Assembly (NCBI GenBank): GCA_003551675.1
Contig: PUNG01000152.1
Location: 5,377 to 69,376 of the forward strand
Reading direction: 5' to 3'
DNA: 64,000 nucleotides
Origin: Thermoplasmata archaeon
GTDB lineage: Archaea; Thermoplasmatota; Thermoplasmata; Halarchaeoplasmatales; Halarchaeoplasmataceae
Part shown: piece after piece, positions 10,347 through 53,479 of the stretch
Layout: every line of letters begins with the position of its first letter
Numbering within the stretch: position 1 is the stretch's first letter
Position numbers and translations under genes: made by a program
The notes under the pieces: generated by a model
What the model saw: only the letters and a program-made list of their open reading frames with translations
Database searches by the model: none
Told to the model about the DNA's origin: nothing

Positions 10347-11252
10347 TCATCTATCTTTTTCCAGGACTCTGACATGATCGCCTCTAACGGTAACGGGGAT
10401 GGGCACGGTGGCTTCGAACAGTTCCACGGTGATCTCGTCGTTATCTTTATCTATCTGGGCGACCCTTGCCTTCTCCCCCTTGAAAGGTCCTGCGGATAAC
10501 TCTACTATGTCCCCTTCCGCTATACCTTCCACTGCAAGTTTTGGAGCTAGAAAATGTTCTATCTCTTCGATACTCGTTTCGCCTCCTATGACCCCTTTGG
10601 CTTTCCTTGTACCGTCGGTGATCTCGTCGACCAGGGTTGGGTTCATTGCTTCTATAAATACGTATCCTCTGACTGGTTTTGGAGCTAGGATGGAAAAAAC
10701 GCCCATATCTTTATCTTTCGCCCAGGATGCTATGTAATCCGCGACGTTCTTCTCCTGGTTGATCTGAGTTTTCATGGCTATAACGGCCGGTCTCGCAGTA
10801 GTTACTAAAGTCAAAGAATCGGATAACATCTTATCTTTAGATGAAGTCGCATCGATTATGATCTCTGCTTTGTCTCCATAACTAGCTCCCTCTGGAGCAC
10901 GGACACCGATGGGCAACATAAATTCGTCATTTCCGTCAACTTTGATGGTCTTGTTGAATGAATCCGAAGGTTCTGACAATTTATCTCCGTCCCATAAGGT
11001 GATCTGCCACGGTATCGGGTTTTCCTCGTCCGAACTGTACAGTAGATGTATCCTCAAATCGATGCTGATCTCCGAAGACGAGGTGTTGACCAATTTGACA
11101 TTATAAGTGGTTTTTTCTCTAGTAGGGATGGATTTTTTGTAAGGTTCACACTTTAAAATGATTTCTTTCTCTTCCTTTTCCTCCTCTTCCTCGGGAAATT
11201 TTTCTTCTTCCTCTGTGATTTCGTCCTCGGTAAAGTCGTCTAACAGTCCCAT
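10347..11252 (-). CDS. spt5: Transcription elongation factor Spt5 (NusG family) with unusual ~150-aa N-terminal extension
   Basis: C-terminal NGN segment (VIAMKTQINQEKNVADYIA...RGYVFIEAMNPTLV) plus KOW segment (GDIVELSAGPFKGEKARVAQID). The N-terminal 150 aa are acidic (EEEEKFPEEEEEKEEKE) and followed by a beta-rich segment. Confidence 0.8.
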   Translation of the reverse strand: MGLLDDFTEDEITEEEEKFPEEEEEKEEKEIILKCEPYKKSIPTREKTTYNVKLVNTSSSEISIDLRIHLLYSSDEENPIPWQITLWDGDKLSEPSDSFNKTIKVDGNDEFMLPIGVRAPEGASYGDKAEIIIDATSSKDKMLSDSLTLVTTARPAVIAMKTQINQEKNVADYIASWAKDKDMGVFSILAPKPVRGYVFIEAMNPTLVDEITDGTRKAKGVIGGETSIEEIEHFLAPKLAVEGIAEGDIVELSAGPFKGEKARVAQIDKDNDEITVELFEATVPIPVTVRGDHVRVLEKDR

Positions 11253-12753: not shown

Positions 12754-13305
12754 TCATGCCGTCTTTTTCCAGGAGAATATATTGATCAAGAGATACAGTA
12801 TGAAAAATACCGCCGAAGAGAAGATAACCATGAGTATTATCTCTATATTGGCTCCTATGCCCATCTCTAAAGAACTGTATGCGCCTATCAATCCGGCGAA
12901 AACGGCCAAAAAAAATCCCATCACGACGTTACCAAACAAGTCATTCAAGGCGGATCTTTTAAAGTCCTGCACGTTCTTGTCCGAACTACTTTCAAAAACT
13001 TCATCTATACCGCTGACCAGCAGCGTGTTCCTAGCGTAGAACCAAACACCTACGAAGAGGAAAAAGAAACCTATTATCGATAACAGGTTGGCGGTTGTGA
13101 AAGAGATCACCCTGTTGACGAAAAGGTAAGATATTATCAGCAGAGGTATACCTGAATCCAGGAATAATAGCCTACGCACATTGTAACCTATCAAGGGGAC
13201 TATACAGAAGATCAAGGGAAAAAACCAGTATACCGAATGAAGGGATGTCAGACTCGCCAGTGCCGCCGACAAGATCATCAAGGCGGAAACAAAAACTCTA
13301 GTCAA
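12754..13305 (-). CDS. Polytopic membrane protein (module gene D, copy 1)
   Basis: 183 aa with about 5 TM helices. Paralogous to 21198..21725 (shared SLHS.YWF.P..F......YN......LD.GI....S..FVN and IGFFFLFVG.WFY.RN). Confidence 0.5.
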   Translation of the reverse strand: MTRVFVSALMILSAALASLTSLHSVYWFFPLIFCIVPLIGYNVRRLLFLDSGIPLLIISYLFVNRVISFTTANLLSIIGFFFLFVGVWFYARNTLLVSGIDEVFESSSDKNVQDFKRSALNDLFGNVVMGFFLAVFAGLIGAYSSLEMGIGANIEIILMVIFSSAVFFILYLLINIFSWKKTA

Positions 13306-14588
13306 GCTCGTCTTTTTCTCTGTCTGTATCTTAACACCTCCTCTAAAGCCGGTTCTAAAGGTTGGTTAGGATCCCAATCCACTACCACCGTTCCGTAGGT
13401 CCAAAGTTTTTCTATTATATTCTTCCTTTCCGCACGGTGTAATTTTTCCGCCGTAGATCCAAGGTCACCCACGATATTTTTTTCTATCTTTACAGGGTCT
13501 GGAGAGATCACCATAACGTCGTATTCTCTTCTGCAAAAGTCTACGATGGTGTCGCTGAACTCGGGTACCGTTAAGGGGGAAATAAAGATGATCATGCTCC
13601 TTCTTGGAAAAAAATCCTCTAATAGCCACTTAACACCTTCAAGGCCCCAAGTACCCCCTTTTTCAAATTTGGCCAAGTTGGATAAGATGCTTTGGTATTG
13701 ATTTTTGCCCGTACCCGGGTAGACCCAGTTAAGGTACTCGCCCGCCACTATGACCCCTACCTGATTCCGGGCGGAAAGTATGGCCGAGGACAAACTCGCT
13801 GCCGCGTCTACGGAGGATTCCAGTGTGTTATTTCTCATGGTCCCTACTATACCTTTTTTATATCCGTCCACCACCAAGATCACGTCCCCTGATTTTTCAG
13901 CTTCGTATTCGTTGGTGAAGGGCTTTTGATATCGTGCGGTAGCCTTCCAGTTTATATCTCTGATCTCGTCGCCTATATGGTATTCCCGCAGAGAAAAGAA
14001 TTCGTTACCTACACCTATGCTTTTTGATTTTATATCTCCAAGCCAGTGCTTGGTATAACTGGGATTTATATCTATTTTTTTCATCTCTTGAACCCGTGGA
14101 AGTATCCGTATCGATATATTTTCTTCTTCATCTAATTCTTCACTAAAAAAATTAAAGGTGTCCCTGTATCTTATCTTGGTGGGGCCCACTTCTATCTTTC
14201 CACTGACAGGGCATGAGATCTTGTAGTATAGATCTTTTTTTTCTCCCTTTTCAAGCCTCACGATTTGATGGTTAGATCCATCTACCACTTCAACAAGGGA
14301 GGGGAGTATGTCGTGTACCTCCAAAAAACGTAGTTCATCTCCTTTATTTTCTAGATGGATATTCAGTTCGATCTCGTCGCCCAAGTAAACGTCTCTTATC
14401 CCTCTACTGGTCTCTCTACGAACATCTACGCGAATATCGTCAGGCGGTAGCGATCTACCCACGATGACGAAGAGTGCTAGGGACGATATGGCCCCCATAA
14501 AGAAAACCCAACTTCTGAATAGATTTCCCAGGAGCACCGTTAAAATGGTGAGTGCCGTCAGATAGACCAGGAGTTTATCCATCTTCAT
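13302..14588 (-). CDS. DUF58-family (vWA-like) protein with N-terminal TM segments (module gene C, copy 1)
   Basis: DUF58-like core NEFFSLREYHIGDEIRDINWKATARYQKPFTNEYEAEKSGDVILVVDG. Two N-terminal TM helices are followed by a beta-rich domain. A 4-nt overlap with the downstream gene suggests an operon. Confidence 0.7.
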   Translation of the reverse strand: MKMDKLLVYLTALTILTVLLGNLFRSWVFFMGAISSLALFVIVGRSLPPDDIRVDVRRETSRGIRDVYLGDEIELNIHLENKGDELRFLEVHDILPSLVEVVDGSNHQIVRLEKGEKKDLYYKISCPVSGKIEVGPTKIRYRDTFNFFSEELDEEENISIRILPRVQEMKKIDINPSYTKHWLGDIKSKSIGVGNEFFSLREYHIGDEIRDINWKATARYQKPFTNEYEAEKSGDVILVVDGYKKGIVGTMRNNTLESSVDAAASLSSAILSARNQVGVIVAGEYLNWVYPGTGKNQYQSILSNLAKFEKGGTWGLEGVKWLLEDFFPRRSMIIFISPLTVPEFSDTIVDFCRREYDVMVISPDPVKIEKNIVGDLGSTAEKLHRAERKNIIEKLWTYGTVVVDWDPNQPLEPALEEVLRYRQRKRRA

Positions 14589-14634
14589 GTATTACACCCC
14601 TCAGCAGCCGAGAACGTAGACTTCGTATTTTGCA

Positions 14635-15258
14635 CTAGTTCCATTCTTCGATCCTCCGTATGATCTCCTTTACTTTTTTTTCGTAATCTTTTTTTGACTC
14701 TTCATCCTTGGACCCAGGTCGTAGAAATCTTTCAAGTCCCTTTTTTTGCTCTCTCCCATGATCGTTAGAGAGCATGAAATCCGAGATCATATCGTCTTGA
14801 ACCATGCTGCGGAACTCGTCTGGGTTTCTCAAAAGATATCGTACGTCTTTTTCAGATAGATCTTTTTTTTCTTTCAATTTCATGATGAATATTTTTCTAA
14901 CCTTTTCCAAGAACATTTTTTGACTTATCTTCTTTCCCTCAGAAGCTCTTTGAAGGAGGACCGACGTATCCTGCATCCTTAGGTTTATGGTCTCGTCGAG
15001 TTCCTTTTTTTCTTTCCAGAAATCGGGCTTTTCAGTGGAGCTCATGGTCAACTGGATCAAGTCAAATCCGATGACGATCAGTAAAAGGAATCCCAACGCC
15101 CTTCCTATGCTCTTCTGTATGCCGCTCCCTCCCTCTAATGTCAATACGAAAAAAGAGACGATCAACAGCAGTAGTAGGATGTAATAGACATTCGAACTTT
15201 TTTTCCGTAGGATCAGGTCTTTTTTGATCATCGACATGTTAAACGAGGTTTCAGACAT
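14635..15258 (-). CDS. Membrane protein with 2 TM and cytoplasmic helical K/E-rich domain (module gene B, copy 1)
   Basis: Paralogous to 23035..23577 and 26419..27087 (shared C-terminal DVRYLLRNPDEFRSMVQDDMISDF / EVNKLIRYPDKFRDVVKDDTLADF / DIKELLKNEDDLRKIVEDETLVDF). Confidence 0.5.
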   Translation of the reverse strand: MSETSFNMSMIKKDLILRKKSSNVYYILLLLLIVSFFVLTLEGGSGIQKSIGRALGFLLLIVIGFDLIQLTMSSTEKPDFWKEKKELDETINLRMQDTSVLLQRASEGKKISQKMFLEKVRKIFIMKLKEKKDLSEKDVRYLLRNPDEFRSMVQDDMISDFMLSNDHGREQKKGLERFLRPGSKDEESKKDYEKKVKEIIRRIEEWN

Positions 15259-15261
15259 GTT

Positions 15262-16239
15262 TCACTCCAAATCTTTTTTTAATTCCTTAAGATTTTTTAA
15301 GGTCCGGTTCTTTTCCTTCTCACCCAGCGGATGAGAACTGTACTTGGCCAGCTCGAACACTTCTCTTATGTTTACGATCTTTAAGGAGGGCACATCTAAT
15401 TTTTCAGTCGCTAACTCTTCAAATTCCCTAGGTGTCATGGAATCTTCGTTCTCCACGCCCTTCTCTTCCAGTATCAAGCACATCTGCTGGTAGCATCTTA
15501 TTATGGTGGATTTCACGTCTCTGCCTTGGTGCAGCTCCGTTATGGCACGGTCAACGGCAGAAGTTATGTCGTCCTCCAACTTGTCTTCGTCTTCTACCTG
15601 TTTAGAGGGTTTCAGCGGCTGGAATCTTTGATACATGAAAAAAACGATGGCTAACACGAAGATAAGGATGAATACGGCCACCCCGGGTCCCCCTATACTT
15701 TCAGTAGCCACTCCAGCTTCATCCCAGAGATATGAGACGGACTCCCCGTTCAAAGAAGGTAGACGGTCAAGGGGAAAGTAGCCGTAAAGTGCATCCGCCA
15801 ATACATCACTGAAAGCATAGACTATCAATCCGCCGATCCCAATGAAAAGGGATACTAGGATCGCCACCTTTTTTGAACTTATATGCCCTTGCAAAACCGC
15901 AAAGAGTAGAAGACCACTACCCAGTATGATAAGCCCGAAATATAAAGCACCCAAAGCCTCAAAGAAGATCGGAGTTATGACCCAAAACAGTGCAAAACTC
16001 AACAGCAATAAGAGCATACGTGATCTTCCTTTATAGAATACGACTGCCGCTATAAAGAAGGGCGCGATGATACCTATGACTGCAAGGTAAGAAAGGTTTA
16101 GAGGACTCCCTCCTATGTCGTACTGAAAATTCATCATATTCCCTATAAGCCATGCACCTAGAAGGAAGAGGATGAAGGTCGTCACTACCGTTGTTTTTTT
16201 GTCCAAACTTATTCCTCTCAGTCGAAACAAAATCAACAC
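15262..16239 (-). CDS. DUF4129-like membrane protein (module gene A, copy 1)
   Basis: About 8 TM helices. The C-terminal cytoplasmic domain (DRAITELHQGRDVKSTIIRCYQQM...TPREFEELA...FELAKYSSHPLGEKE) matches the recalled DUF4129 pattern (TPrE...yE.arYs). Confidence 0.6.
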   Translation of the reverse strand: MLILFRLRGISLDKKTTVVTTFILFLLGAWLIGNMMNFQYDIGGSPLNLSYLAVIGIIAPFFIAAVVFYKGRSRMLLLLLSFALFWVITPIFFEALGALYFGLIILGSGLLLFAVLQGHISSKKVAILVSLFIGIGGLIVYAFSDVLADALYGYFPLDRLPSLNGESVSYLWDEAGVATESIGGPGVAVFILIFVLAIVFFMYQRFQPLKPSKQVEDEDKLEDDITSAVDRAITELHQGRDVKSTIIRCYQQMCLILEEKGVENEDSMTPREFEELATEKLDVPSLKIVNIREVFELAKYSSHPLGEKEKNRTLKNLKELKKDLE

Positions 16240-16260: not shown

Positions 16261-16277
16261 CTATAGCCTCGCTAGTG
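16261..16277. repeat. 17-bp exact direct repeat CTATAGCCTCGCTAGTG (copy 1; copy 2 at 19746..19762)
   Basis: The 17-mer is identical at 16261 and 19746 and brackets the large surface-protein gene. Confidence 0.5.
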
Positions 16278-16289
16278 TCGTATCCCTAC

Positions 16290-16492
16290 ACATAAAAGAG
16301 TCTGGTGAGCACGAGTTGAAAGCGGAAGGTGTGAGCCTCACTTTTACAGTCGAAGAAGTCACAACCGACAGCTGGTTGGTAGTTGCGTTGATCCTCTCGA
16401 TCATAGCTCTGCTCTTGTTCGTCTGGATGGGGATGCAAAGTGACGAGAAGACGGTTGATAAGCCCACCCTTAGGAAAAAAGAGAATGAGTGA
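16290..16492 (+). pseudogene. 3' fragment of a surface-protein paralogue (C-terminal TM-anchor coding remnant)
   Basis: Its translation LKAEGVSLTFTVEEVTTDSWLVVALILSIIALLLFVWMGMQSDEKTVD matches the C-terminus of the 16546..19575 product (AEGFTRIIDVEEVTTDGWLIAALILSIIALLVFVWMGMESDGKTVD). Nucleotide identity is high, and no upstream gene body is present. Confidence 0.55.
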
Positions 16493-16545: not shown

Positions 16546-19500
16546 ATGTATATCTATATAGTCTATAAAAGAAGGATTTGTATGAGGGAAAAGAGATTGG
16601 TCTTCGTCGTAAGTTGCCTACTTATAACCGGCGGGATGGTAGTTGTTGTCGGGGGCGAGGCGATAGAAGGGAACGAAAGTGTTGGTGGAGTGACAGGGGA
16701 AAATGAACCGCAGGCTGTTCAAGAGATCCACGACTGGTACGATCTCGATGATGTGCGGGACGATCTAGACGGCGATTATATTCTGATGAACGATTTGGAT
16801 GAAAATACCGACGGTCATGACGAATACAACAACCAGAAAGAGAATTATAAAATCAGAGAAGATGCTGGATATGAAGAAGCTTGGGACGATGGCGATACGA
16901 TAGATATACCCTTTGATGAAGATGATTATGATTCAGTTTTATCAGTTGAAGATGAAGACGGAAACTCTATAGATCATACTGTAGACCATCCCACGATCAC
17001 AATAGATGAAGACACGGGGGAACGATATATTTATGTAAACTACGAAGATGCTGTTGTGGGCTGGGAGCCGATAGGTGATGATGATGACGGATTTTCAGGT
17101 ACTTTCGACGGAGATGATTATGAAATAAGGGACCTCTACACCGACCGATTAGGCACAGATAACGTTGGCCTGTTTGGGTATATCGATGAAGGTGGAGAAG
17201 TTCGCAACGTTGGTGCTGTCGATACGGATGTGAGGGGATTCATTGGTGTAGGCGGGCTCATAGGATTTATCTATGAAGGCACGATCGAAAACTCATACGT
17301 CACGGGTGATGTGAGTGGAGACTCGCATGTTGGTGGGCTCGTTGGATGGAACGCGGGGGAAGGCACGGTGGCGAACTCGTATGCTACGGGAGATGTGAGT
17401 GGAGAAGGTGGTATAGGTGGGCTCGTTGGAACGAACATAGGCACGGTGGCGAACTCGTATGCAACTGGAGACGTGAGAGGGGGAGGTGGTATAGGCGGGC
17501 TCGTTGGATCGAACTCTGGCCTGGTGGCGAACTCGTATGCTACTGGTGTGGTGAGCGGGGGAGACAGTGTAGGCGGGCTCGTTGGTGTGAACCATGATAC
17601 GGTGTCGAACTCGTATGCTACTGGTGTGGTGAGTGGGGGAGATGGTATAGGCGGGCTCGTTGGAATGAACATAGGCACGGTGTCAAACTCGTATGCTATA
17701 GGAGATGTGAGTGGAGACGAGCTTGTAGGCGGGCTCGCAGGACTTAACTATAAAGGCACGATCGAAAACTCGTATGCAACTGGAGGGGTGAGCGGAGATG
17801 AGGACATAGGTGGGCTCGTTGGATTGAAATTTGAAGGCAGCACGGTTGAGAACTCGTTCTGGGATATCGAAACATCAGGACAAGATGATTCCAACGGCGG
17901 TACAGGGAAGACCACCGTTGAGATGAAGGATGCTGTGACCTACACAGATACAAGTACTGAAGGATTGAACGAGCCGTGGGATTTCGTAGGCGATCCGAAC
18001 GACGACGAAGGTGATGAGGATATATGGGACATCGACGATAGTACTAACGACGGATATCCATTCTTGACTTGGTCAGCAAGGGAACTTGCGATAAACATCG
18101 AAGGCAAAGGTAATACCGAACCTTTGGAAGGTACTCACACCTATGTAAAAGGTACTGAGGTAACTGTTACAGCAACGCCTGATGAGGGCTGGTACTTTGA
18201 CGGTTGGACTGGCGATCACGAAAATGCCAACAGGGAGATAACGATAATCATAGATGACAATAAAATCCTGACGGCTAATTTTGATGAGATAAGAGAAGGA
18301 GAACAAGTTTTAACGATAAATGTTGATGGTGAAGGCACGACGGAGCCGAAGCCAGGAGATCACATCTATGACAAGGGTGAAGAAGTCACGATTAAAGGGA
18401 TTCCGGAAGAAGGCTGGTACTTTGTCGAATGGACCGGCGATCACGAAGGTACAGAAGACAAGCTCACTATAACTATGGACGAGGATAAAGAAGTAACAGC
18501 TCATTTTGCCATACACGAATACACCTTGACGGTGAACGTCGAAGGAGAAGGAACTACCGATCCTGAAGAAGGTATTCATAGTTATGAAAAAGGAGATATC
18601 GTGACGGTTGAAGCTACGCCCGCAGAGGACTGGATTTTTGTAGAGTGGATAGGAGACGAGGTAGGAACGGACACGACCATAGAGATAAATATGTACGAAA
18701 ACAAGAGTATAACGGCTGTCTTCGAAGAGATCCAAACATACGAGTTGACGGTAGATGTAGAGGGTGAAGGCACCGTAGAAGTTGAGCCTGAGCGGGAAGA
18801 GTACGAAGAGGGCACGGAAGTCATTTTAACAGCGGTACCTGACGAAGGTTGGTACTTCGAAGAGTGGACAGAAGACTATGAAAGTACTGAAGACGAACTC
18901 ACCATAATCATGGACAGTAACAAAGAAATCACGGCATGGTTCGAAGAGGAAGTAAAGTATCACGAGCTAGAGGTGAACATAGACGGTGAAGGCACCGTAG
19001 AAGTTGAGCCCGAGCAGGACGAGTACGAAGCGGGCACGGAAGTCACTTTAACAGCGGTACCTGCCGAAGGTTGGTACTTCAAAGAGTGGTCTGGTGACGA
19101 AACAAGTACAGAAGTGGAAATCACCGTCACCATGGACGAAGACAAAAACATCACCGCACATTTCGAGAAGTTAGCTCCTGCGGAATTCGAATTCTCTGCC
19201 CTAACAATAGAGCCGGGAGAACCGGAGGTGGGCGAAGAAATCAAGATAAACATAGAAGTGACCAACATGGGTGGGCTAGAAGGAGAATACACCGTAGAAT
19301 TTTACATGAACCATGCTCTCATCGACGAAGTAGATGTAGAGCTGGAGGCCGGTGAAACAAAAACGGTTTCAACGACCTACGAGATCGAAGAGGCTGGGGA
19401 TTATCACATAGAAGCGGAAGGTTTCACTCGGATTATCGATGTCGAAGAAGTCACCACCGACGGTTGGTTGATCGCCGCTTTGATCCTTTCGATCATCGCT

Positions 19501-19575
19501 CTACTCGTGTTCGTCTGGATGGGGATGGAGAGTGACGGGAAGACAGTTGATGCTCCCGAGGAGGACGAAGACTAA
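16546..19575 (+). CDS. Large cell-surface protein: signal peptide, GLUG-motif repeats, about 7 Listeria-Bacteroides-type repeats, CARDB-like domain, C-terminal TM anchor
   Basis: N-terminal signal/TM segment (LVFVVSCLLITGGMVVVVGG) and an acidic region. About 8 repeats of GGLVG.N.GTV.NSYATGDVSG are GLUG-like. About 7 repeats carry GWYF.EWTGD...ITA.F. A CARDB-like segment reads EPGEPEVGEEIKINIEVTNMGGLEGEYTVEFYMN. The C-terminal TM is WLIAALILSIIALLVFVWMG, followed by an acidic tail. Confidence 0.85.
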   Translation: MYIYIVYKRRICMREKRLVFVVSCLLITGGMVVVVGGEAIEGNESVGGVTGENEPQAVQEIHDWYDLDDVRDDLDGDYILMNDLDENTDGHDEYNNQKENYKIREDAGYEEAWDDGDTIDIPFDEDDYDSVLSVEDEDGNSIDHTVDHPTITIDEDTGERYIYVNYEDAVVGWEPIGDDDDGFSGTFDGDDYEIRDLYTDRLGTDNVGLFGYIDEGGEVRNVGAVDTDVRGFIGVGGLIGFIYEGTIENSYVTGDVSGDSHVGGLVGWNAGEGTVANSYATGDVSGEGGIGGLVGTNIGTVANSYATGDVRGGGGIGGLVGSNSGLVANSYATGVVSGGDSVGGLVGVNHDTVSNSYATGVVSGGDGIGGLVGMNIGTVSNSYAIGDVSGDELVGGLAGLNYKGTIENSYATGGVSGDEDIGGLVGLKFEGSTVENSFWDIETSGQDDSNGGTGKTTVEMKDAVTYTDTSTEGLNEPWDFVGDPNDDEGDEDIWDIDDSTNDGYPFLTWSARELAINIEGKGNTEPLEGTHTYVKGTEVTVTATPDEGWYFDGWTGDHENANREITIIIDDNKILTANFDEIREGEQVLTINVDGEGTTEPKPGDHIYDKGEEVTIKGIPEEGWYFVEWTGDHEGTEDKLTITMDEDKEVTAHFAIHEYTLTVNVEGEGTTDPEEGIHSYEKGDIVTVEATPAEDWIFVEWIGDEVGTDTTIEINMYENKSITAVFEEIQTYELTVDVEGEGTVEVEPEREEYEEGTEVILTAVPDEGWYFEEWTEDYESTEDELTIIMDSNKEITAWFEEEVKYHELEVNIDGEGTVEVEPEQDEYEAGTEVTLTAVPAEGWYFKEWSGDETSTEVEITVTMDEDKNITAHFEKLAPAEFEFSALTIEPGEPEVGEEIKINIEVTNMGGLEGEYTVEFYMNHALIDEVDVELEAGETKTVSTTYEIEEAGDYHIEAEGFTRIIDVEEVTTDGWLIAALILSIIALLVFVWMGMESDGKTVDAPEEDED
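17290..17830 (+). repeat. ~60-bp tandem nucleotide repeats (about 8 units) encoding GLUG motifs
   Basis: Recurring units such as ggtataggcgggctcgttgga...ggcacggtggcgaactcgtatgctactggag...gtgagtgg occur with high inter-unit identity. Confidence 0.7.
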
Positions 19576-19745
19576 CTGCAGATCCTCACCAACAAAGTCG
19601 ACCTCAGTTTTTCCTTCGTATCGAATTCGTGCCCTTTGATGATGAGCACGTTCCGATTTTCCAACGATCTATCCGTTCAGATGAAAACGTCTACACCTCA
19701 TTTCGATCCAAAAACGAAAAGCAGATCCCGGAAAAATTAGAAAAA

Positions 19746-19762
19746 CTATAGCCTCGCTAGTG
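19746..19762. repeat. 17-bp direct repeat CTATAGCCTCGCTAGTG (copy 2)
   Basis: Exact match to 16261..16277, located 170 bp downstream of the surface-protein stop codon. Confidence 0.5.
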
Positions 19763-19790: not shown

Positions 19791-20537
19791 ATGATCGAGG
19801 TATGGAATATGAGGAGTTTCACCAGGACAAAAGTCCTGATCGTTTTGGGGCTTATCTTGTTCAGTCCGGTACTTCCCTGGTATTATGGGGGAGAACAACA
19901 TGGCGAGCAGCTTTCTAGGGTCCCGGACTCTGAAAGCGTCAACTTGAACCCCGGTGATGATATGTTCACTTACCATTTTAGGGCCGAAGCCGAGGACGAA
20001 ATACATATCAGAGTATCCTCCGACAGACAGCCGTCTTTCCAAGTGGTCCTCATACCCGTAGAACACCTGGACGAATATAGACAAGATCCATCCTTTACAG
20101 ATATAGAGAAGATCGAAGAGGCGTCCAACAAACAAACCAGATCGTTCAGGGCACATCTATCCGTACCTGAAGAGGGCGAATACGTTCTGGTCGTTCGTTC
20201 CTTGGACTCCAGGAGTGCGGTTTACAACGTTTTGATCGGAAGAGGTCTTTTTTCATCGATGGTGGTACGATCAGGAGGATTTGTGGAGTTTTTCGGTATC
20301 CTCTTTATGGGTGTCGGTGCTGTATCCGCTAGCATCTATCTTTACATGAGGTTGAAAGAAAAAAAGAAAGACTCACTGAAGAACGGAATTTCCTTGGATA
20401 TGAGTTTATCGCAGATCGATGAGGAAGACAAGGAGAGATACAAAACGGAGGAAAAAAGACCGGATATAGGCTCTTCCACCCATACCGTCGAGGACGACTC
20501 TTCACCCGAAGAAGACTACCTTAGATATGATGATTGA
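19791..20537 (+). CDS. Secreted/membrane-anchored protein of unknown function (signal peptide, C-terminal TM, acidic tail)
   Basis: N-terminal hydrophobic segment VLIVLGLILFSPVL, a central soluble domain, a C-terminal TM FGILFMGVGAVSASIYLYM and a D/E-rich tail. Confidence 0.45.
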   Translation: MIEVWNMRSFTRTKVLIVLGLILFSPVLPWYYGGEQHGEQLSRVPDSESVNLNPGDDMFTYHFRAEAEDEIHIRVSSDRQPSFQVVLIPVEHLDEYRQDPSFTDIEKIEEASNKQTRSFRAHLSVPEEGEYVLVVRSLDSRSAVYNVLIGRGLFSSMVVRSGGFVEFFGILFMGVGAVSASIYLYMRLKEKKKDSLKNGISLDMSLSQIDEEDKERYKTEEKRPDIGSSTHTVEDDSSPEEDYLRYDD

Positions 20538-21751: not shown

Positions 21752-23077
21752 TTATCTTCGCTTGTATCTTAACACCTCCTCCAAAGTCGGTTCTAGAGGC
21801 TCTCTAGGGTCCCAGTCCACCACGATGGCTCCGTGGGTCCAGAGCTTGTCTAACAGATGCTGCCTTTCCGCGTGGTGCAGCTTTTCGGCCAGACCTTCAT
21901 AATTATCCGTGAGATCCATCTCGATCTTGAGGGGGTCTGGAGAGATGACCATCACGTCGTATTCTCTCATACAAAGATCGATCATGGTCTCGCTGAATTT
22001 TGAAACCGTCAACGGAGAGATAAAGATAATCATGCTCTTTCTCGGAAAAAGATCCTCTAGGATCCATTTTACTCCCTCCATCCCCCAGCCGCCGCCCTCC
22101 TCGAATTTCGTAAGGTTCGCGATTATACGATGATAGTGATTTTTACCGGTACTAGGGTACAGCCAATTAAGATAACTGCCCGAAACTATCAATCCCACAC
22201 GGTGTCTAGATGAAAGAAGAACTGAGGCTAGACTTGCGGTTGCATCTATGGACGCCTTCATGGTATTATGTTCCATGGTTCCTATCATACCTTCTTGGTA
22301 GCCATCTACAACCAATATCACGTCTCCGCTTTTTTCGCCTTCGTATGCGTTGGTCTTGGGGTCCAAGTATCTAGCCGTGGCCTTCCAATTGATGTCTTTT
22401 AAGCCGTCTCCCGGATGGTATTCGCGGAGAGCAAAAAATTCACTACCGAAGCCTATGTTTTTAGACTTAGTATCTCCTAACCAGTGCTTGGTGTAGCTTG
22501 GAGCAATGCTCACTTTCTCCATATCTTCGGTTTTAGGTAATACTTGAAGATCTATCTTTTTTCTTGGCTCCAATACCCTGGAAAAAAGACAAAGACCGTC
22601 TCTGTATCTCAACTTTATGGGCCCCACTTCAAAATTTCCTGTGACTGGACATTTTATCTTATAATCGAACTCGAAGACATCATTTGCTTTTATCGTACAG
22701 ATGTGGTGGTTGGTTCCCTCCGAAACTTCGATCCGCGGTGGAAGAACATCATGCACCTCCAAAAAGCGTATCTCGTCTCCCTTGTTTTTGATCTTTATCT
22801 TCAGTCGGAGTTCGCCTTCAACGTGAACTTCCCTCGCTTCATGCCGGGAACCCCTTTCCACTTCGATATGAAGGTTTTTAGGAGGTAGTGACCCCACGGC
22901 CACGACTAAAATTGCTACTGAACAGATGGTGCCTATGAAAAAGATCCAACTACCTAAAAGATTGCCGAATATGATCCCCGCAACCGCCAAGAGCACTATG
23001 TAAAGGAACGGCCTCCCTTTTTTCGTCTCTCCATCTACCCCCATCTGTCGATCCTCTCCATGATCTCTGATAACCAT
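21752..23077 (-). CDS. DUF58-family (vWA-like) protein (module gene C, copy 2)
   Basis: SEFFALREYHPGDGLKDINWKATARYLDPKTNAYEGEKSGDVILVVDG; about 60% identical to copy 1. Confidence 0.7.
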   Translation of the reverse strand: MVIRDHGEDRQMGVDGETKKGRPFLYIVLLAVAGIIFGNLLGSWIFFIGTICSVAILVVAVGSLPPKNLHIEVERGSRHEAREVHVEGELRLKIKIKNKGDEIRFLEVHDVLPPRIEVSEGTNHHICTIKANDVFEFDYKIKCPVTGNFEVGPIKLRYRDGLCLFSRVLEPRKKIDLQVLPKTEDMEKVSIAPSYTKHWLGDTKSKNIGFGSEFFALREYHPGDGLKDINWKATARYLDPKTNAYEGEKSGDVILVVDGYQEGMIGTMEHNTMKASIDATASLASVLLSSRHRVGLIVSGSYLNWLYPSTGKNHYHRIIANLTKFEEGGGWGMEGVKWILEDLFPRKSMIIFISPLTVSKFSETMIDLCMREYDVMVISPDPLKIEMDLTDNYEGLAEKLHHAERQHLLDKLWTHGAIVVDWDPREPLEPTLEEVLRYKRR

Positions 23078-23577
23078 TCTTCGTATTCCTCGTCTTCCCT
23101 AACATCCTCTTCTGCATCGTCCTCGTCGGCTAGTACGAAATCAGCCAGGGTGTCGTCCTTCACCACGTCTCTAAATTTATCAGGGTACCGGATAAGTTTA
23201 TTCACTTCGTCTCTGGATAGATTTCTTTCAACTTGCAGTTTGCTTAAAAAAATATCTTTTATCTTTCTTTCTAAAAGACCGCGGCTGACCCGCATCCCTT
23301 TAGACGCTCTTTTGACCAGGTTGGAAGTGTTCCCCAATCTAATATCTATCTCCTCTTTCAGAACTTCTTCGTGTTTCCAGATATCCTCGTCTTCCGTAAT
23401 TTCTCTCGCCCAGAGAACCAGGTTCATCCCCATGAGGAACAATATGAACATGGCTGAGAAATATCGTAGTAGTCCTTCCGAACCGACGGTAAAAACGGTT
23501 AAAACTAGGATGAAAAAACCGCTCAAGATATAGTATGATCTGTTCTTTTTATGGCCGAGACTATTCACGGCGTTCAT
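23035..23577 (-). CDS. Module gene B, copy 2 (2-TM plus cytoplasmic helical domain)
   Basis: Paralogue of 14635..15258. Confidence 0.5.
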   Translation of the reverse strand: MNAVNSLGHKKNRSYYILSGFFILVLTVFTVGSEGLLRYFSAMFILFLMGMNLVLWAREITEDEDIWKHEEVLKEEIDIRLGNTSNLVKRASKGMRVSRGLLERKIKDIFLSKLQVERNLSRDEVNKLIRYPDKFRDVVKDDTLADFVLADEDDAEEDVREDEEYEEWLSEIMERIDRWG

Positions 23578-24512
23578 CCCAATTCCTCCTGTATATCCTT
23601 CAGAGTCCTTACAGCTCGATCCCTTTCTTTTTCACCGAGTTCATGCTGGCTGTACTTTGCGATCTCGAACAATTTCCTGATCTCTGTTATTTTAGAGGCG
23701 GATACGTGTATGTTGTTGATAGCTCTTTTTTCGAACTCTCTAGGTGTGGTGAACTCAGTATCTTTCAAACCTTTCTTTTCAAGTATATTACACATCCTTT
23801 GATAGCATCTCAATATGGTGGATTTTACATCTTTTCCTTTGTGAAGCTCTTTGATGGCTTCATCTACAGTAGATGATATATCGTATTCTATATCTTTTTC
23901 AGATCCCTCCTCCTCGGATTTACGGAGTAAAGGTATCACTCTCTGCACCAATAAGAAGAGCAGTACCGCCGCGATCAAAAGTACGAGTATGAACGTGCCC
24001 ATACTACCGAATGCATGTTCTACCATGGCTCTAGAGTTATCCCAGGGGAGTGAAAGTCCCTCTCCGTTCCCCTCTGTTTGGATCGGGATCAGATCTCCTC
24101 CTGTTCCGAAATAGGTGACGATCAAAAGTAAAAGGCCTCCCAAAGCTATCACAACAAAATAGGCCGACATCCCTTTCTGTCCCAGCCCCTTCCAATACAT
24201 CAGAGCCAAAAGGAATATGGTGATGATTATCACCGAAGGCCAAAGTATCCCGTATCTCAGAAAAAGATAAGGTGCGAGTCCCATGGCCACAAGGCTACCT
24301 GAGACCATCAAAATAGTGGGAGACTTACTCTTCAAAACTATAAAGAGCGGCACGATCAATAACGGTAAATAGATCCACAACCAGGATATGGTGAAATCGA
24401 AGGTCTGTGTGTCCTCATCTAGTGTGGGTGATAAAGACATCACATTACCTATGCTCCAGGAAGCAAAAAGAAAGAGGATCAAGATCAATCCGGTCAATGT
24501 TTTTCTATCCAT
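23574..24512 (-). CDS. DUF4129-like membrane protein (module gene A, copy 2)
   Basis: C-terminal DEAIKELHKGKDVKSTILRCYQRM...TPREFEKRA...FEIAKYSQHELGEKE is paralogous to 15262..16239. Confidence 0.6.
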   Translation of the reverse strand: MDRKTLTGLILILFLFASWSIGNVMSLSPTLDEDTQTFDFTISWLWIYLPLLIVPLFIVLKSKSPTILMVSGSLVAMGLAPYLFLRYGILWPSVIIITIFLLALMYWKGLGQKGMSAYFVVIALGGLLLLIVTYFGTGGDLIPIQTEGNGEGLSLPWDNSRAMVEHAFGSMGTFILVLLIAAVLLFLLVQRVIPLLRKSEEEGSEKDIEYDISSTVDEAIKELHKGKDVKSTILRCYQRMCNILEKKGLKDTEFTTPREFEKRAINNIHVSASKITEIRKLFEIAKYSQHELGEKERDRAVRTLKDIQEELG

Positions 24513-24584: not shown

Positions 24585-25247
24585 TCAACCGATCTTCTTA
24601 CGTGCGAAGTACTTCGGTAAGAAAACTACGACTCCGTATACCGCTGTGAAAACTACTGCACCGAACAGGAGTATGATAAATGTGGCAAGATCAGGGGAAA
24701 AAGGTCCCACGAAACTATAGATGGCTACGACTCCTCCCAACGAAGCTACGACGAATCCCCAAAACAAAGACCACAGGTGATAATGTGCGGAATGTCTTTT
24801 GTATTCCTGAAGAAGATCCGTCTCTCCGTCTCCCTGCATATCTTTTTCTATCTCTCCGATCAACGATGCTCTTCTCATGAATGACCATGCACCAAAATAT
24901 AGGATGAACATGGTCAAAATAAAGATGAGATTAGCAGGGTTTAGTGAGATATAACGGACGAAGTAGAAAAAGGACGAAGCCGAAGCGAGGATACTCACAT
25001 CCACTGCAATTTTTATTTCCCGGTAGAATCCGATGATACCTACAGAACCACTTACCAGAGGAAACCACCATCCAGAAGTATCGTAAGATACCGCGGAGGC
25101 TAATAGACAGATGGTGAAGACGAACACGCCTAGTAAGATCTTATCAATTTTCAGCCTCCACTCATCTTCCAATATCTTATCACCTCCTCTAAAGACGCCT
25201 CTAAAGGTTCGTTGGGATCCCAGTCCACTACCACGCTGTATTTCCAC
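24585..25247 (-). CDS. Polytopic membrane protein (module gene D-like, copy 3, more divergent)
   Basis: 220 aa with about 5-6 TM helices, in the same position and orientation as gene D in copies 1 and 2. Similarity is weak. Confidence 0.4.
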   Translation of the reverse strand: MEIQRGSGLGSQRTFRGVFRGGDKILEDEWRLKIDKILLGVFVFTICLLASAVSYDTSGWWFPLVSGSVGIIGFYREIKIAVDVSILASASSFFYFVRYISLNPANLIFILTMFILYFGAWSFMRRASLIGEIEKDMQGDGETDLLQEYKRHSAHYHLWSLFWGFVVASLGGVVAIYSFVGPFSPDLATFIILLFGAVVFTAVYGVVVFLPKYFARKKIG

Positions 25248-26422
25248 AGCTTTTCTAGGATGATATCTCTTTCAAGCCGTGTGAGCTCTTCAGCTAACAA
25301 GTTATGTTCTTTCATGATCTCTTTCTGGATCACCAACGGGTTAGGCGATATCACCATGATATTATATTCCCTCATGCAGATATCGATTATCGTTTCGCTC
25401 ACCTTTTTGGAGAGCAGAGGGGATATGAATATGATCATACTCCTGTTAGGGAAAAACCGCCTCAAAAGCCACCTCGCATCTTTTAGTTTCCAATGACCTC
25501 CTTTTTCCACCTCGCTCAGATGCTCCATTATCTTATAAAATTGATCTCTCCCCGTCTCCGGATAGAGCCAATTCAGATAGTCGCCTAAGATGATCAGACC
25601 TACTCTGTTCCTGTCCGCGAGTATAGACGAGGCAAGGGAGCCGGCGGCTTGAATGGTCGCATCGAGAGTATTGATATCCGAGTTGCCTATGTTTCCCAAC
25701 CTATGTCCATCTACTACGATGATCACATCTCCTGATTTTTCACCGACGAATTCGTTGGTCATGGGTTCAAGAAATCTTGCACTAGCTTTCCAATTTATCT
25801 TTCTTATTTCATCGTCCACCATGTACTCTCTAAGGGAAAAAAATTCCGTACCTATCCCCATATGCTGTGACCCTATATTTCCCATCCACTTCTTCGTGTA
25901 TAAGGGTCTTACATTTACACTCTCCATGTCCTGTACTTTTGGCAGGACGAAGAGTTTCATCAATTTGTTGCTGGTCCATTCCTCAACATAGTAGTTAAGA
26001 GGATCTCTGTATCTGATCTCGATAGGACCTACTTTGATATCCCCTCTTTTAGGACATTTTATCTTGTAGCGGATGGTTTTCTCTTCTTTTTCATCCAATC
26101 TCAAAACCTGGTGATTTGATCCTTTTATAACCTTCACGTTAGAAGGAAGTGAATCGTATATCTCGATATAGTTCAGTGCAGAGCCATGATTCTTGACTGA
26201 CAGTTCGACCCATACATGGTCTCCTTCGTACAAACTCATCTTTTCAGATTTTCTTTCGGCTTTCAATTTGACGTCGCCTTTTAAAGCACCTCTGTTTCCA
26301 ACGGCCAGCATGGAAAAATTAGCGATGGCTAAGATGAGAAAAACCCAACTATCTAGGATCATACCGATGATAAGCGATAGGATGGTGACGGCGATCAGGC
26401 TGAAACTAGTGATCGATCTCAT
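25151..26422 (-). CDS. DUF58-family (vWA-like) protein (module gene C, copy 3)
   Basis: TEFFSLREYMVDDEIRKINWKASARFLEPMTNEFVGEKSGDVIIVVDG. Confidence 0.7.
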   Translation of the reverse strand: MRSITSFSLIAVTILSLIIGMILDSWVFLILAIANFSMLAVGNRGALKGDVKLKAERKSEKMSLYEGDHVWVELSVKNHGSALNYIEIYDSLPSNVKVIKGSNHQVLRLDEKEEKTIRYKIKCPKRGDIKVGPIEIRYRDPLNYYVEEWTSNKLMKLFVLPKVQDMESVNVRPLYTKKWMGNIGSQHMGIGTEFFSLREYMVDDEIRKINWKASARFLEPMTNEFVGEKSGDVIIVVDGHRLGNIGNSDINTLDATIQAAGSLASSILADRNRVGLIILGDYLNWLYPETGRDQFYKIMEHLSEVEKGGHWKLKDARWLLRRFFPNRSMIIFISPLLSKKVSETIIDICMREYNIMVISPNPLVIQKEIMKEHNLLAEELTRLERDIILEKLWKYSVVVDWDPNEPLEASLEEVIRYWKMSGG

Positions 26423-27087
26423 ACTTCATCCCCCCTCCATCCCGAGACCTTCTCCATCACGTCTTTCATCTTTTTTTCATAGGCGCTGTCCTTCTTCTTA
26501 TTCACATCCTCAGAGCGAGATAACAGATGGAAACCGTTTACTCTTTCGTCCTCTTTTCCAACGATATCTTCGATTTTTTTACTGTTAAGCAAAAAGTCTA
26601 CTAGAGTTTCGTCTTCGACTATCTTTCTCAAATCATCCTCATTTTTCAAAAGTTCTTTTATATCCCCCTCCGACATGTCTTTTTTTTCCTTGATCTTCTC
26701 CACCAAATCCCTTTTCAACCGTTTCTCTATCAAGGTTTGGCTCAGTTCCAACCCTTTCAGTGCCCTATCCATCCTACCAGACATCCTCTCCAACGGCAAA
26801 TTTTGGACTTTATCCTCACCTTGGGGTCTTCTCCATGTTGAGATGATGTTGACGTCTTTCGAGGCGGTAAATATTATATGTGATCCTATCCAACTCAGCA
26901 GGAGCATCGTGACGAACCGTTGTAAGTATCCCCCTGAAAACAGGAGTATTATCATCAAAGCCACACCTACGAAAAGAAATAAGAGAGGAGGCCCCATAAT
27001 ATCTCTTCTCTCCAGACCTGTTTTTTGCACCCATTCCGGTTTTAGATGCAGCCTTTCGACTGTGATTTCTCCTCCAGCATCCGTCAT
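26419..27087 (-). CDS. Module gene B, copy 3
   Basis: Paralogue of 14635..15258 and 23035..23577. Confidence 0.5.
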   Translation of the reverse strand: MTDAGGEITVERLHLKPEWVQKTGLERRDIMGPPLLFLFVGVALMIILLFSGGYLQRFVTMLLLSWIGSHIIFTASKDVNIISTWRRPQGEDKVQNLPLERMSGRMDRALKGLELSQTLIEKRLKRDLVEKIKEKKDMSEGDIKELLKNEDDLRKIVEDETLVDFLLNSKKIEDIVGKEDERVNGFHLLSRSEDVNKKKDSAYEKKMKDVMEKVSGWRGDEV

Positions 27088-27923
27088 AAGGATCCTCTCC
27101 TGAGTTCCTTTAGTTGCTGTAGAACTTTGCTTCTATGTGATTCATCCAGATCATGAGGACTGTATCTAGCTTCTTCAAACAGGTACGTTATATCCGAGAC
27201 CAGCTTTTCGGCCTTCGGCATCTTCTCTATAGTGTATTTTTTGAATTCCCTAGGAGTCATAGAATGATGGTTTTTAGCGCCTTTTTCTTCCAACAGCATG
27301 CTCATCTCTCTGTAGCAATTTATTATGGTAGTGCGGATTTCGCCGCCTCTATCTAGATCCGTGATAGCTTTGTCTAAAGTCGAATAGAAAGAGTCTTCGA
27401 TATCTTCCCTTTTTTTTAGCTCCTTCTTGGGTAAGCTGATATCTGTCTTTTCTCTCTCATCTTTACCGCCGGGGATATTCAGATATATATAATAGGTGAA
27501 CAGGGCTCCCAAGAGTAAAAGCAGCAGAACAAAGCCTATATCTAGAAGAAAGATCAGGGAGGGTACCTCGACTCCTAAAAAATATTCCAATCTCACCTGC
27601 ATCGCTAAAGGCCAAACTGCCAATACAACGAACAAAAGACCACCTATGGATGCAAAGATCCAAAATCCTAACAATAATAGTTCACTCACCATCATCCTAT
27701 CGTTACTTTCGGAACGAAGATATACGATGGATAAGTAAAGTATAGGCGTGGTTAAAAGCAAGATCATGCCGACTATAAATACCTCTTCAGGTACGCCAAG
27801 AAAAACGGGTTCGGAGTCCTGATCGACACTCATATCCATCAGATTGCCGATGAACCATGAAGATATAAGGACCACGAAGACGGACCATATCAATATCTTT
27901 TCACTTTTTAAATCCATGCGCAA
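27084..27923 (-). CDS. DUF4129-like membrane protein (module gene A, copy 3)
   Basis: C-terminal DKAITDLDRGGEIRTTIINCYREM...TPREFKKYT...FEEARYSPHDLDESH. Confidence 0.6.
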   Translation of the reverse strand: MRMDLKSEKILIWSVFVVLISSWFIGNLMDMSVDQDSEPVFLGVPEEVFIVGMILLLTTPILYLSIVYLRSESNDRMMVSELLLLGFWIFASIGGLLFVVLAVWPLAMQVRLEYFLGVEVPSLIFLLDIGFVLLLLLLGALFTYYIYLNIPGGKDEREKTDISLPKKELKKREDIEDSFYSTLDKAITDLDRGGEIRTTIINCYREMSMLLEEKGAKNHHSMTPREFKKYTIEKMPKAEKLVSDITYLFEEARYSPHDLDESHRSKVLQQLKELRRGSL

Positions 27924-32082: not shown

Positions 32083-32180
32083 TGGACCAGCGGGGATTTG
32101 AACCCCGGGCCTCCACCATTCTAGCGGAGATGTTTTCTCCCGTTGCCAAGGTGGCGATCTTCCAACTGATCTACTGGCCC
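32083..32180 (-). tRNA. tRNA-Ala (anticodon GGC) with ~25-nt intron in the anticodon loop; CCA not encoded
   Basis: The reverse complement folds as a tRNA. The acceptor GGGCCAG/CTGGTCC includes a G3:U70 wobble, the Ala identity element. The D-stem is GATC/GATC and the anticodon stem CCACC/GGTGG with loop TTGGCA-intron-. The T-arm is CGGGG TTCAAAT CCCCG and the discriminator is A. Confidence 0.75.
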
Positions 32181-53328: not shown

Positions 53329-53479
53329 GCCGAGGTAGCTAAGCCTGGACCAAGGCGCCGGCCTTGAGAGCCGCCGATCAGAGGAAAGTCTTCACGGGCT
53401 TTCCTCGAGCCGGGATTCCCGGCGATCAAGCAAGCCGGTGGCGCGCTGCGCCTCAGGAGTTCGAATCTCCTCCTCGGCG
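53329..53479 (+). tRNA. tRNA-Ser (anticodon UGA), type II, with 64-nt intron at canonical 37/38 position
   Basis: The acceptor GCCGAGG/CCTCGGC is a perfect 7-bp helix and the discriminator is G. The D-arm is GCU...GGC and the anticodon stem CCGGC/GCCGG with loop CUUGAG-intron-A. A 16-nt variable-arm hairpin reads UGGCGCGCUGCGCCUC. The T-arm is AGGAG UUCGAAU CUCCU. The intron spans 53369..53432 and has its own hairpins. Confidence 0.7.

Follow-up and report, generated by a model that had tools for sequence, protein, structure and literature searches.

A probable membrane-anchored surface protein built of GLUG and InlB-type repeats in a halophilic Thermoplasmatota archaeon

Gene, start codon and transcript

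The stretch of DNA analyzed here, hereafter the window, comprises 64,000 nucleotides of a Thermoplasmata archaeon (GenBank assembly GCA_003551675.1, contig PUNG01000152.1, positions 5,377 to 69,376 of the forward strand). Its plus strand holds, at positions 16546-19575, a single open reading frame (ORF) of 1009 codons plus stop, which encodes an acidic protein composed of GLUG repeats, InlB-type B-repeats and a CARDB domain. An earlier note on this DNA, made from the letters without database searches, had claimed this frame and had described its product as an adhesin-like surface protein with a signal peptide, several sets of repeats and a C-terminal anchor. The frame is present, and the architecture reported below supports an exported, anchored protein of many repeats, of a type that is annotated as adhesin-like. 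Residue numbers follow the 1009-residue ORF throughout.

The first 12 codons are probably untranslated, and the ATG at 16582 (Met13) is very probably the real start, giving a product of 997 residues. Public gene calls begin at this position: an identical 997-residue protein without the first 12 residues is found in NCBI assembly GCA_003553425.1 (contig PWEF01000082.1) and in JGI metagenome 3300000477, the contig label of which, SL_5KL_010_SED, is read as a soda-lake sediment sample. The same start is indicated by the homologues, which open with M-[RK]-x-K-L and a hydrophobic core at exactly Met13, by the location of the ATG at 16546 within an AT-rich, TATA-like stretch (TATATAGATGTATATCTATATAG), and by a GAAGGA motif found 8 nt upstream of 16582. 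The hydrophobic N-terminal segment that the earlier note took for a signal is present, as shown by a hydrophobicity scan, and together with the homologue N-termini and the upstream GAAGGA it points to a Sec-type signal peptide (MREKRLVFVVSCLLITGGMVVVVGGEA, 16582-16659, plus strand), which may be cleaved after the sequence GEA according to the -3/-1 rule only. The sequence VVSC at residues 21-24 resembles a lipobox, but it lies about six residues into the hydrophobic core with hydrophobic sequence continuing beyond it, and we judge that it is probably not a lipoprotein signal.

Archaeal transcription terminates at oligo-T tracts, and on this basis the T5 tract read in the sequence at 19608-19612, 33 nt past the stop codon on the plus strand, is a possible terminator. 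The distance to the start of the next gene exceeds 215 nt, and the surface-protein gene is therefore probably monocistronic.

Domain composition

In the Pfam scan, the divergent InlB B-repeat family PF18998 (Flg_new_2) reaches 238.9 bits over five stretches (cut-off 23.6; E 3.2e-72), the Glug family PF07581 reaches 87.9 bits over seven stretches (cut-off 20.5; E 1.9e-25), and the CARDB family PF07705 reaches 34.8 bits over one stretch, residues 887-957 (cut-off 22.7; E 2e-8). The GLUG and CARDB assignments of the earlier note thus hold at curated thresholds. Its assignment of the longer repeats to PF09479 (Flg_new) does not, since this family remains under its gathering threshold (21.6 bits versus 27; E 2.3e-4; one stretch), whereas the NCBIfam repeat model TIGR02543 passes (42.2 versus 20.95). 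The note thus placed the repeats in the right broad group, the Listeria-Bacteroides type, but PF18998 is the family to which they are best assigned.

A regular-expression search locates eight GLUG units, each initiated by GGL[VIA]G, at residues 236-448 (17251-17889, plus strand), of which Pfam counts seven. The anticipated number of units is correct; their length is 26-28 residues rather than 20. At the DNA level the units form a tandem array of 78 nt with six copies and a 78% match. The B-repeats, predicted as about seven units of some 90 residues, number five of 71-76 residues according to Pfam, the repeat boundaries and the AlphaFold2 model. They occupy residues 514-879 (18085-19182, plus strand; PF18998 and TIGR02543) as B1 (514-588), B2 (589-660), B3 (661-731), B4 (732-807) and B5 (808-879), and are 43-62% identical pairwise. 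A sequence scan finds neither an HExxH motif nor cysteine in the mature protein, and only three N-x-S/T sequons in the 1009 residues. No S-layer domain model was matched in the Pfam and NCBIfam scans.

Predicted structure of the head

The matching regions of 26 homologues were aligned to residues 37-532 (alignment A1), and the alignment was used for modeling with AlphaFold2. The resulting model has a mean predicted local distance difference test score (pLDDT) of 85.2, exceeding 90 over residues 57-461, and a predicted template modeling score (pTM) of 0.82. It is all-beta, with three short strands per coil in the pattern of a parallel beta-helix, and residues 57-461 are predicted to form one right-handed beta-helix. 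The GLUG repeats are modeled as a right-handed parallel beta-helix like that of solved GLUG domains, with one coil per unit. The nearest solved structures are that of BACOVA_03286 (PDB code 3N6Z) and, from IgA1 metalloproteases (including 7uvk and 7jgj), the beta-helix that has no catalytic role. At the sequence level 3n6z is the lone PDB match of the head, with an alignment that begins at GWEPIG.

Residues 46-215 and 441-515 match no Pfam model, even at E<=10. The first of these regions had been described as a D/E-rich N-terminal segment, which is accurate with respect to composition; it is not a low-complexity spacer, because it is confidently modeled within the beta-helix, and in the model it is the N-terminal cap and the first coils. 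The cap (residues 56-91, IHDWYDLDDVRDDLDGDYILMNDLDENTDGH; 16711-16818, plus strand) is conserved among the homologues, has pLDDT values above 90 and lacks a Pfam model. The first coils, ahead of the canonical GLUG units, cover residues 172-235 (GWEPIG...FSGTFDG...VGLFG...; 17059-17250, plus strand). The GLUG units are followed by a conserved segment at residues 449-513 (...GGTGKTTVEMKDA...WDF...DIWDID...NDGYPFLTW; 17890-18084, plus strand), identified in alignments A1 and A3 and without a Pfam match, which is modeled as a C-terminal cap up to residue 461. The invariant columns of the homologue alignment are nearly all Gly, Leu or Tyr.

A lineage-restricted insertion in the cap

Between the cap motif DLDENTDG[YH]D and GWEPIG, the homologue alignment reveals an insertion of 80 residues (92-171, DEYNNQKENYKIREDAGYEEAWDDGDTIDIPFDEDDYDSVLSVEDEDGNSIDHTVDHPTITIDEDTGERYIYVNYEDAVV; 16819-17058, plus strand), an acidic, beta-rich domain modeled with six strands at pLDDT values above 90. 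The insert is carried by about 10 of the 27 aligned proteins and is cleanly missing from the others, which read ...DENTDGYDDLVDTEKGWDPIG. Among 1.84 billion cluster representatives, an exhaustive HMMER search retrieved only 29 proteins at E<=1e-3, 20 of them at E<=1e-10. In almost all matches the insert lies some 50-170 residues into the protein or module, and GLUG cap motifs lie on both of its flanks in three of the five matches read in context; two weaker matches (P0139 and P0141) occur outside a GLUG-cap context. Neither a sequence scan nor a profile of 22 sequences (A4) assigns the insert to a Pfam family, and the only match of this profile in the PDB is a marginal one (3q6a, E 2e-3 over 53 residues). 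This small, lineage-restricted and unclassified domain is the sole part of the protein itself that is out of the ordinary.

Proposed stalk, membrane anchor and tail

The C-terminal half was modeled with AlphaFold2 on residues 431-1009 (alignment A3). The five B-repeats form five separate compact beta domains (pLDDT 82-94). The membrane-adjoining CARDB, an Ig-like beta-sandwich (residues 880-967; 19183-19446, plus strand; PF07705 and AlphaFold2), is modeled as a seven-strand sandwich over residues 881-967 with a pLDDT of about 87, and a helix follows at residues 973-991. The pTM of this model is 0.35 because the angles between the domains are undefined, which corresponds to a beads-on-a-string arrangement. 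A Foldseek search of the PDB with the C-terminal model returned just generic strings of beta-sandwiches with TM-scores of at most 0.21 and was uninformative.

The hydrophobicity scan identifies two membrane-competent segments only, the N-terminal one and residues 973-994. The latter constitutes the C-terminal transmembrane helix (GWLIAALILSIIALLVFVWMGM; 19462-19527, plus strand), recognized by a Kyte-Doolittle scan and by AlphaFold2, and is followed by a 15-residue acidic, presumably cytoplasmic tail (ESDGKTVDAPEEDED) and the stop codon (19528-19575, plus strand), in agreement with the hydrophobic anchor and acidic tail that had been claimed. The helix has no PGF motif. Several homologues end in PGF-CTERM-like signals, with [IT]PGF, a transmembrane segment and KK-type tails. 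A role of the present protein as a PGF-CTERM substrate of archaeosortase A was rejected: its C-terminus (...VTTDGWLIAALILSIIALLVFVWMGMESDGKTVDAPEEDED) lacks PGF, the tail is acidic, and no NCBIfam sorting-signal model is matched.

Homologues, paralogues and modularity

A word-indexed search with an E-value limit of 1e-5 yielded 7,728 proteins. Among the 120 best matches, about 44 combine GLUG with Flg_new_2, four of them adding CARDB, and many of the named ones come from Thermoplasmatota, Aenigmatarchaeota or other archaea; several database homologues pair GLUG with Peptidase_M26_N (PF05342). In species-representative genomes 33 loci were found, nearly all in metagenome-assembled genomes (MAGs) of halophilic Thermoplasmata/Thermoplasmatota, with five or six loci in each of three genomes; further loci lie in bins labeled Aenigmatarchaeota and Micrarchaeota and in two bacteria. 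The suggestion that the architecture is specifically bacterial is not borne out by these distributions. Close homologues, with up to 53% identity over residues 1-944, occur at loci L003 and L028 (Aenigmatarchaeota bin) and L021 and L023 (Micrarchaeota bin) from similar habitats; transfer of genes among archaea living together could account for them, as could mis-binning.

The organism has further proteins of this type. Locus L036 of the same assembly (contig PWEF01000123.1, 6086-17003) contains four surface-protein genes, all with InlB B-repeats: one of Flg_new_2 and VWA (285 residues), P0002 with GLUG, eight Flg_new_2 and CARDB (1400 residues), one of a PQQ propeller and Flg_new_2 (556 residues), and one of NosD/Beta_helix, five Flg_new_2 and CARDB (1319 residues). 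P0002 and the protein described here have in common the anchor sequence VTTD[GS]WL..ALILSIIALL.FVW.GM. The same B-repeat stalk thus stands beneath GLUG, NosD, PQQ and VWA heads, and the unit of B-repeats (with or without CARDB) and transmembrane anchor is therefore, as judged from sequence, a reusable stalk for different heads in this organism. A second paralogue runs off the left edge of the window (3-1142, plus strand), with at least three B-repeats, CARDB/Big_7, a different transmembrane anchor and a long charged tail; over residues 673-957 of the main protein the identity is 57%. The number of B-repeats accordingly differs among the paralogues, with five in the main protein, eight in P0002 and at least three in the truncated gene.

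No variation in repeat number was seen at the strain level among six other contigs with the same gene, which are 99.97-100% identical, most of them beginning inside the gene. Contigs of five independent assemblies of the same strain (L052-L056; 99.97-99.99% identical) start at window positions 18137, 19358 (twice), 19508 and 19694, within the 3' half of the gene or shortly past it. At 19358 and 19508 the break adjoins or falls inside 19388-19551, a stretch common to P0002 and to the gene remnant described below, and the breaks are most likely an assembly effect of sequence shared between paralogues.

A gene remnant and a direct repeat at the locus

Just upstream of the promoter region, tblastn detects the 3' remnant of a paralogous gene on the plus strand (16283-16492), comprising the last CARDB strands, the transmembrane anchor and the tail. 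Positions 16283-16465 encode the last 60 or so residues of the paralogue, with 62-66% amino acid identity to residues 944-1004 (tblastn) and 77-84% identity in DNA. The remnant shares its anchor sequence with P0002, and public records contain no gene call for it; it looks like what is left of a deleted or replaced paralogue. Within 113 nt it differs from the 3' end of the complete gene by 18 mismatches, ten of which are at codon position 3 and eight at an A in the remnant. Targeting of the C-terminus by a diversity-generating retroelement was considered and rejected, as the mismatches are not adenine-specific and no reverse transcriptase is present among the neighboring genes scanned.

The remnant, the promoter, the complete gene and the T5 tract are enclosed by two perfect copies of a 17-nt direct repeat (CTATAGCCTCGCTAGTG) on the plus strand, at 16261-16277 and 19746-19762, which lie 3485 nt apart. 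The left copy ends 5 nt ahead of the remnant homology and the right copy is located 170 nt past the stop codon. There are just two copies in the window; shuffled sequences are expected to give 0.09 matches with at most three mismatches, and none of the shuffles produced two. A scan of the whole collection gave 14 matches, all with unrelated flanks, as would be expected by chance. The fetched loci contain no further copies apart from this locus, and the other contigs that carry the 17-mer belong to the same strain. A scar left by recombination, a site of the att type and a regulatory element common to both positions are possible explanations of the repeat.

Host organism and amino acid composition

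The alanyl-tRNA synthetase encoded at 27960-30788 is 81% identical to that of Ca. Natronoplasma sp. and 66% identical to that of Ca. Saliniplasma. Both genera belong to an order, defined by MAGs, of halophilic Thermoplasmatota known from soda-saline lakes; its members are described as free-living and as degrading carbohydrates and organic acids (PMC11332174). As judged from this sequence, the host of the gene is a Thermoplasmatota archaeon close to Ca. Natronoplasma, and the window contains ordinary housekeeping genes, including those of FtsZ, Spt5 and alanyl-tRNA synthetase. The affiliation with a free-living lineage and the ordinary gene content speak against the idea of the earlier note that the organism might be a symbiont.

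The very acidic proteome assumed in that note was not found either. The median isoelectric point (pI) over 42 window ORFs is 5.36, with about 16% Asp plus Glu and about 12% Lys plus Arg, and the surface protein alone is an outlier as the most acidic protein of the window (pI 4.05, 24% Asp plus Glu, 4% Lys plus Arg). The net charge of the mature protein is about -200 at pH 7. That the protein is far more acidic than its proteome fits an ectodomain that is exposed to brine.

Proposed function and alternatives

Taken together, we consider it moderately probable that the gene encodes a type-I membrane-anchored surface protein of halophilic Thermoplasmatota with a 'periscope'-like build, the head of which is a non-enzymatic binding module. 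The Sec-type signal peptide would move the protein across the membrane. The single C-terminal helix, seen both in the sequence and in the model, would then hold it there, with a predicted topology that places the acidic tail inside the cell. The CARDB domain and the five beta-grasp-type B-repeats, detected as individual domains, would act as a beads-on-a-string stalk with a reach of perhaps 20 nm, as estimated from the typical sizes of such domains. The head would most likely bind some polymer or the surface of a partner; polysaccharide, particles of mineral or organic matter and other cells are candidates. In this sense the protein would be adhesin-like; adhesion is suggested by the architecture and by the usage of the literature. 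The domain order corresponds to the layout of the periscope class, with an N-terminal head, tandem rigid repeats and a C-terminal anchor, and the extreme acidity (pI 4.05 versus a window median of 5.36) accords with an ectodomain that has to remain soluble in brine.

Several points weigh against this proposal. Binding, localization and expression are all predictions from the sequence, with adhesion read from the architecture only, and we know of no experimentally defined ligand of GLUG. Both the cleavage of the N-terminal segment and the topology are predicted, and an uncleaved segment would leave the protein tethered at both ends. The acidic tail departs from the positive-inside rule. The conserved residues 463-513 have pLDDT values under 50 in both AlphaFold2 models, so that no fold could be placed there. 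The neighborhood offers no functional clue, as the flanking DUF4129/DUF58 genes are unlinked to homologues elsewhere. Finally, the beta-helix fold is common to many polysaccharide lyases and hydrolases, and an enzymatic head is conceivable.

In this last case the head would be a surface-displayed lyase, hydrolase or epimerase that the stalk merely presents to polysaccharide outside the cell. Such a role would suit an order described as degrading carbohydrates (PMC11332174), and a sister protein of the same genome does carry a NosD/Beta_helix/pectate-lyase-like head on the same stalk. The structural matches of the present head to enzymes of this kind, however, are just 7-15% identical and reflect the generic fold; no glycoside hydrolase, lyase or Beta_helix/NosD family is matched in Pfam even at E<=1, and the head does not qualify as a carbohydrate-active enzyme of the pectate-lyase fold. 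The GLUG coils are glycine-rich and uniform, and the alignment lacks a conserved acidic or basic catalytic cluster, which leaves an enzymatic head unlikely. We regard it as similarly improbable that the protein is a structural component of the envelope, that is, an abundant acidic coat or spacer that shapes a pseudo-periplasm or binds cations instead of acting as a specific adhesin. The net charge of about -200 on the most acidic protein of the window, the multi-copy nature of the family in every related genome, and the PGF-CTERM signals of some homologues, which haloarchaeal S-layer glycoproteins also have, are consistent with a coat. But three sequons in 1009 residues are few for an archaeal S-layer glycoprotein, no S-layer model is matched, and many divergent paralogues with swapped heads better suit variable binding proteins than a single lattice former.

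A smaller chance still is given to attachment of a symbiont to its host, as the earlier note had suggested, or to a docking site for DPANN episymbionts. The homologues in MAGs labeled Aenigmatarchaeota (53% identity over residues 1-944) and Micrarchaeota from similar habitats would be in line with such a role, as would the enrichment of Flg_new and GLUG proteins in host-associated archaea (PMC9723798). Against this, the gene is carried by a Thermoplasmatota genome that has normal housekeeping genes and is nearest to Ca. Natronoplasma, in an order described from MAGs as free-living heterotrophs (PMC11332174); the DPANN labels are those of metagenome bins, for which mis-binning or a transfer of genes could be responsible. 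A metalloprotease of the M26 type, similar to IgA proteases, is extremely improbable and was rejected. The GLUG motif was first defined in M26-type enzymes, the best structural matches of the head include the IgA1 proteases 7uvk and 7jgj, and several homologues combine GLUG with Peptidase_M26_N (PF05342). The similarity is nevertheless limited to the non-catalytic N-terminal beta-helix of IgA1 proteases, Pfam detects neither PF05342 nor PF07580 in the present protein, and HExxH is absent from its entire length.

In a more specific proposal, the cap insert would be a new ligand-binding module that gives halophilic Thermoplasmatota a binding specificity of their own, and the 17-nt repeats would mark cassette-like recombination by which surface-protein genes are swapped at the locus. 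The two parts together form a speculative idea, which we consider improbable.

Comparison with known systems

Archaeal proteins with Flg_new and GLUG domains have been treated as adhesin-like, and two proteins of Methanimicrococcus blatticola carry both domains (PMC9723798). The adhesin-like proteins of methanogens (Methanomassiliicoccales; M. blatticola, PMC9723798) resemble the present protein in being archaeal, membrane-bound and multi-copy and in having the same two domain families. In both cases adhesion is deduced from the architecture only, and the Methanomassiliicoccales also belong to the Thermoplasmatota. The methanogen proteins have been interpreted as adaptations to the animal gut (PMC9723798), whereas the present protein belongs to a free-living lineage and comes from the sediment of a hypersaline soda lake. 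It further differs from them in repeats that fit PF18998 instead of PF09479, in its CARDB domain, plain transmembrane anchor and extreme acidity, and in the cap insert.

With respect to the head, BACOVA_03286 of Bacteroides ovatus (PDB 3N6Z, annotated as 'putative IgA1 protease') is a stand-alone GLUG beta-helix and is close in structure. In the pneumococcal IgA1 metalloprotease, the beta-helix domain is small, has no catalytic role and acts as a gate to the active site (PMC7695701). The beta-helix of these enzymes (Streptococcus pneumoniae, 7JGJ; G. haemolysans, 7UVK; PMC7695701) thus gates the protease site of a 1300-residue enzyme and is described as having no protruding elements. By contrast, the present protein has no protease domain and no HExxH motif, and a domain protrudes from its cap. 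The adhesin PfbA of S. pneumoniae (4MR0/3ZPP) is a beta-helix as well, with plasmin and fibronectin as ligands, but it is only 11% identical, is not a GLUG helix and has another type of anchor.

The stalk finds its counterpart in Gram-positive proteins, in which B-repeats have been described as beta-grasp 'periscope' spacer domains (PMC12415215). Gram-positive periscope and InlB B-repeat proteins share with the present protein the N-terminal head, the tandem small beta-domain spacer and the C-terminal anchor, as well as a repeat number that differs among related proteins (at least 3, 5 and 8 in the paralogues of this genome). Unlike them, the archaeal protein is held by a transmembrane helix in an archaeal membrane and has no LPXTG or other wall anchor, and its length varies among paralogues, while the copies of the strain are 99.97-100% identical.

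This kind of protein is already known and widely distributed, and the elements beyond the routine are the cap insert and the repeat-bracketed gene with its remnant only. Archaeal Flg_new/GLUG adhesin-like proteins have been read as gut-specific acquisitions (PMC9723798); surface proteins with GLUG and InlB B-repeats are abundant and multi-copy also in free-living hypersaline Thermoplasmatota. In this uncultured order they make up a modular surface toolkit, with one B-repeat/CARDB/transmembrane stalk and GLUG, NosD-type, PQQ-propeller or VWA heads. The analysis also corrects an annotation trap, in that an acidic N-terminus which is blank in Pfam and resembles a linker is modeled as part of a folded beta-helix with an inserted domain. 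The value of these observations is modest, and they leave the understanding of how such proteins work unchanged.

Neighboring genes and other features of the window

Downstream of the surface-protein gene, positions 19809-20537 (plus strand) encode a predicted membrane protein of 242 residues with an N-terminal hydrophobic segment, a beta-rich middle part, a transmembrane helix and an acidic tail. The word-indexed search of 5.8 billion proteins retrieved no homologue beyond this strain, and no Pfam family is matched.

Three tandem trios of genes for a DUF4129 protein, a small membrane protein and a DUF58 protein are present on the minus strand (13302-16239, 21752-24512 and 25151-27923). The DUF58 copies are 55-64% identical, and no MoxR ATPase was seen adjoining the trios. 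The surface-protein gene, the orphan gene at 19809-20537 and a gene of the RDD family are located between the first and the second trio. A functional link of the surface protein to the trios was rejected, since similar genes lie near only one of the 33 related loci (L029), and in a different arrangement.

The ORF of Spt5/NusG (10347-11252, minus strand) contains an NGN domain at residues 158-235, a KOW domain at residues 246-277 and an apparent N-terminal extension of about 150 residues with a weak Ig-like (FixG_C) match. The extension may simply be an artifact of ORF calling, in which the earliest available start codon made the frame too long. Rfam reports two tRNA matches, at 32083-32180 (minus strand, 98 nt) and 53329-53479 (plus strand, 151 nt), against a model of 71 positions, and ARAGORN finds none. 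The lengths of the matches suggest introns, and both are probably intron-containing archaeal tRNAs.

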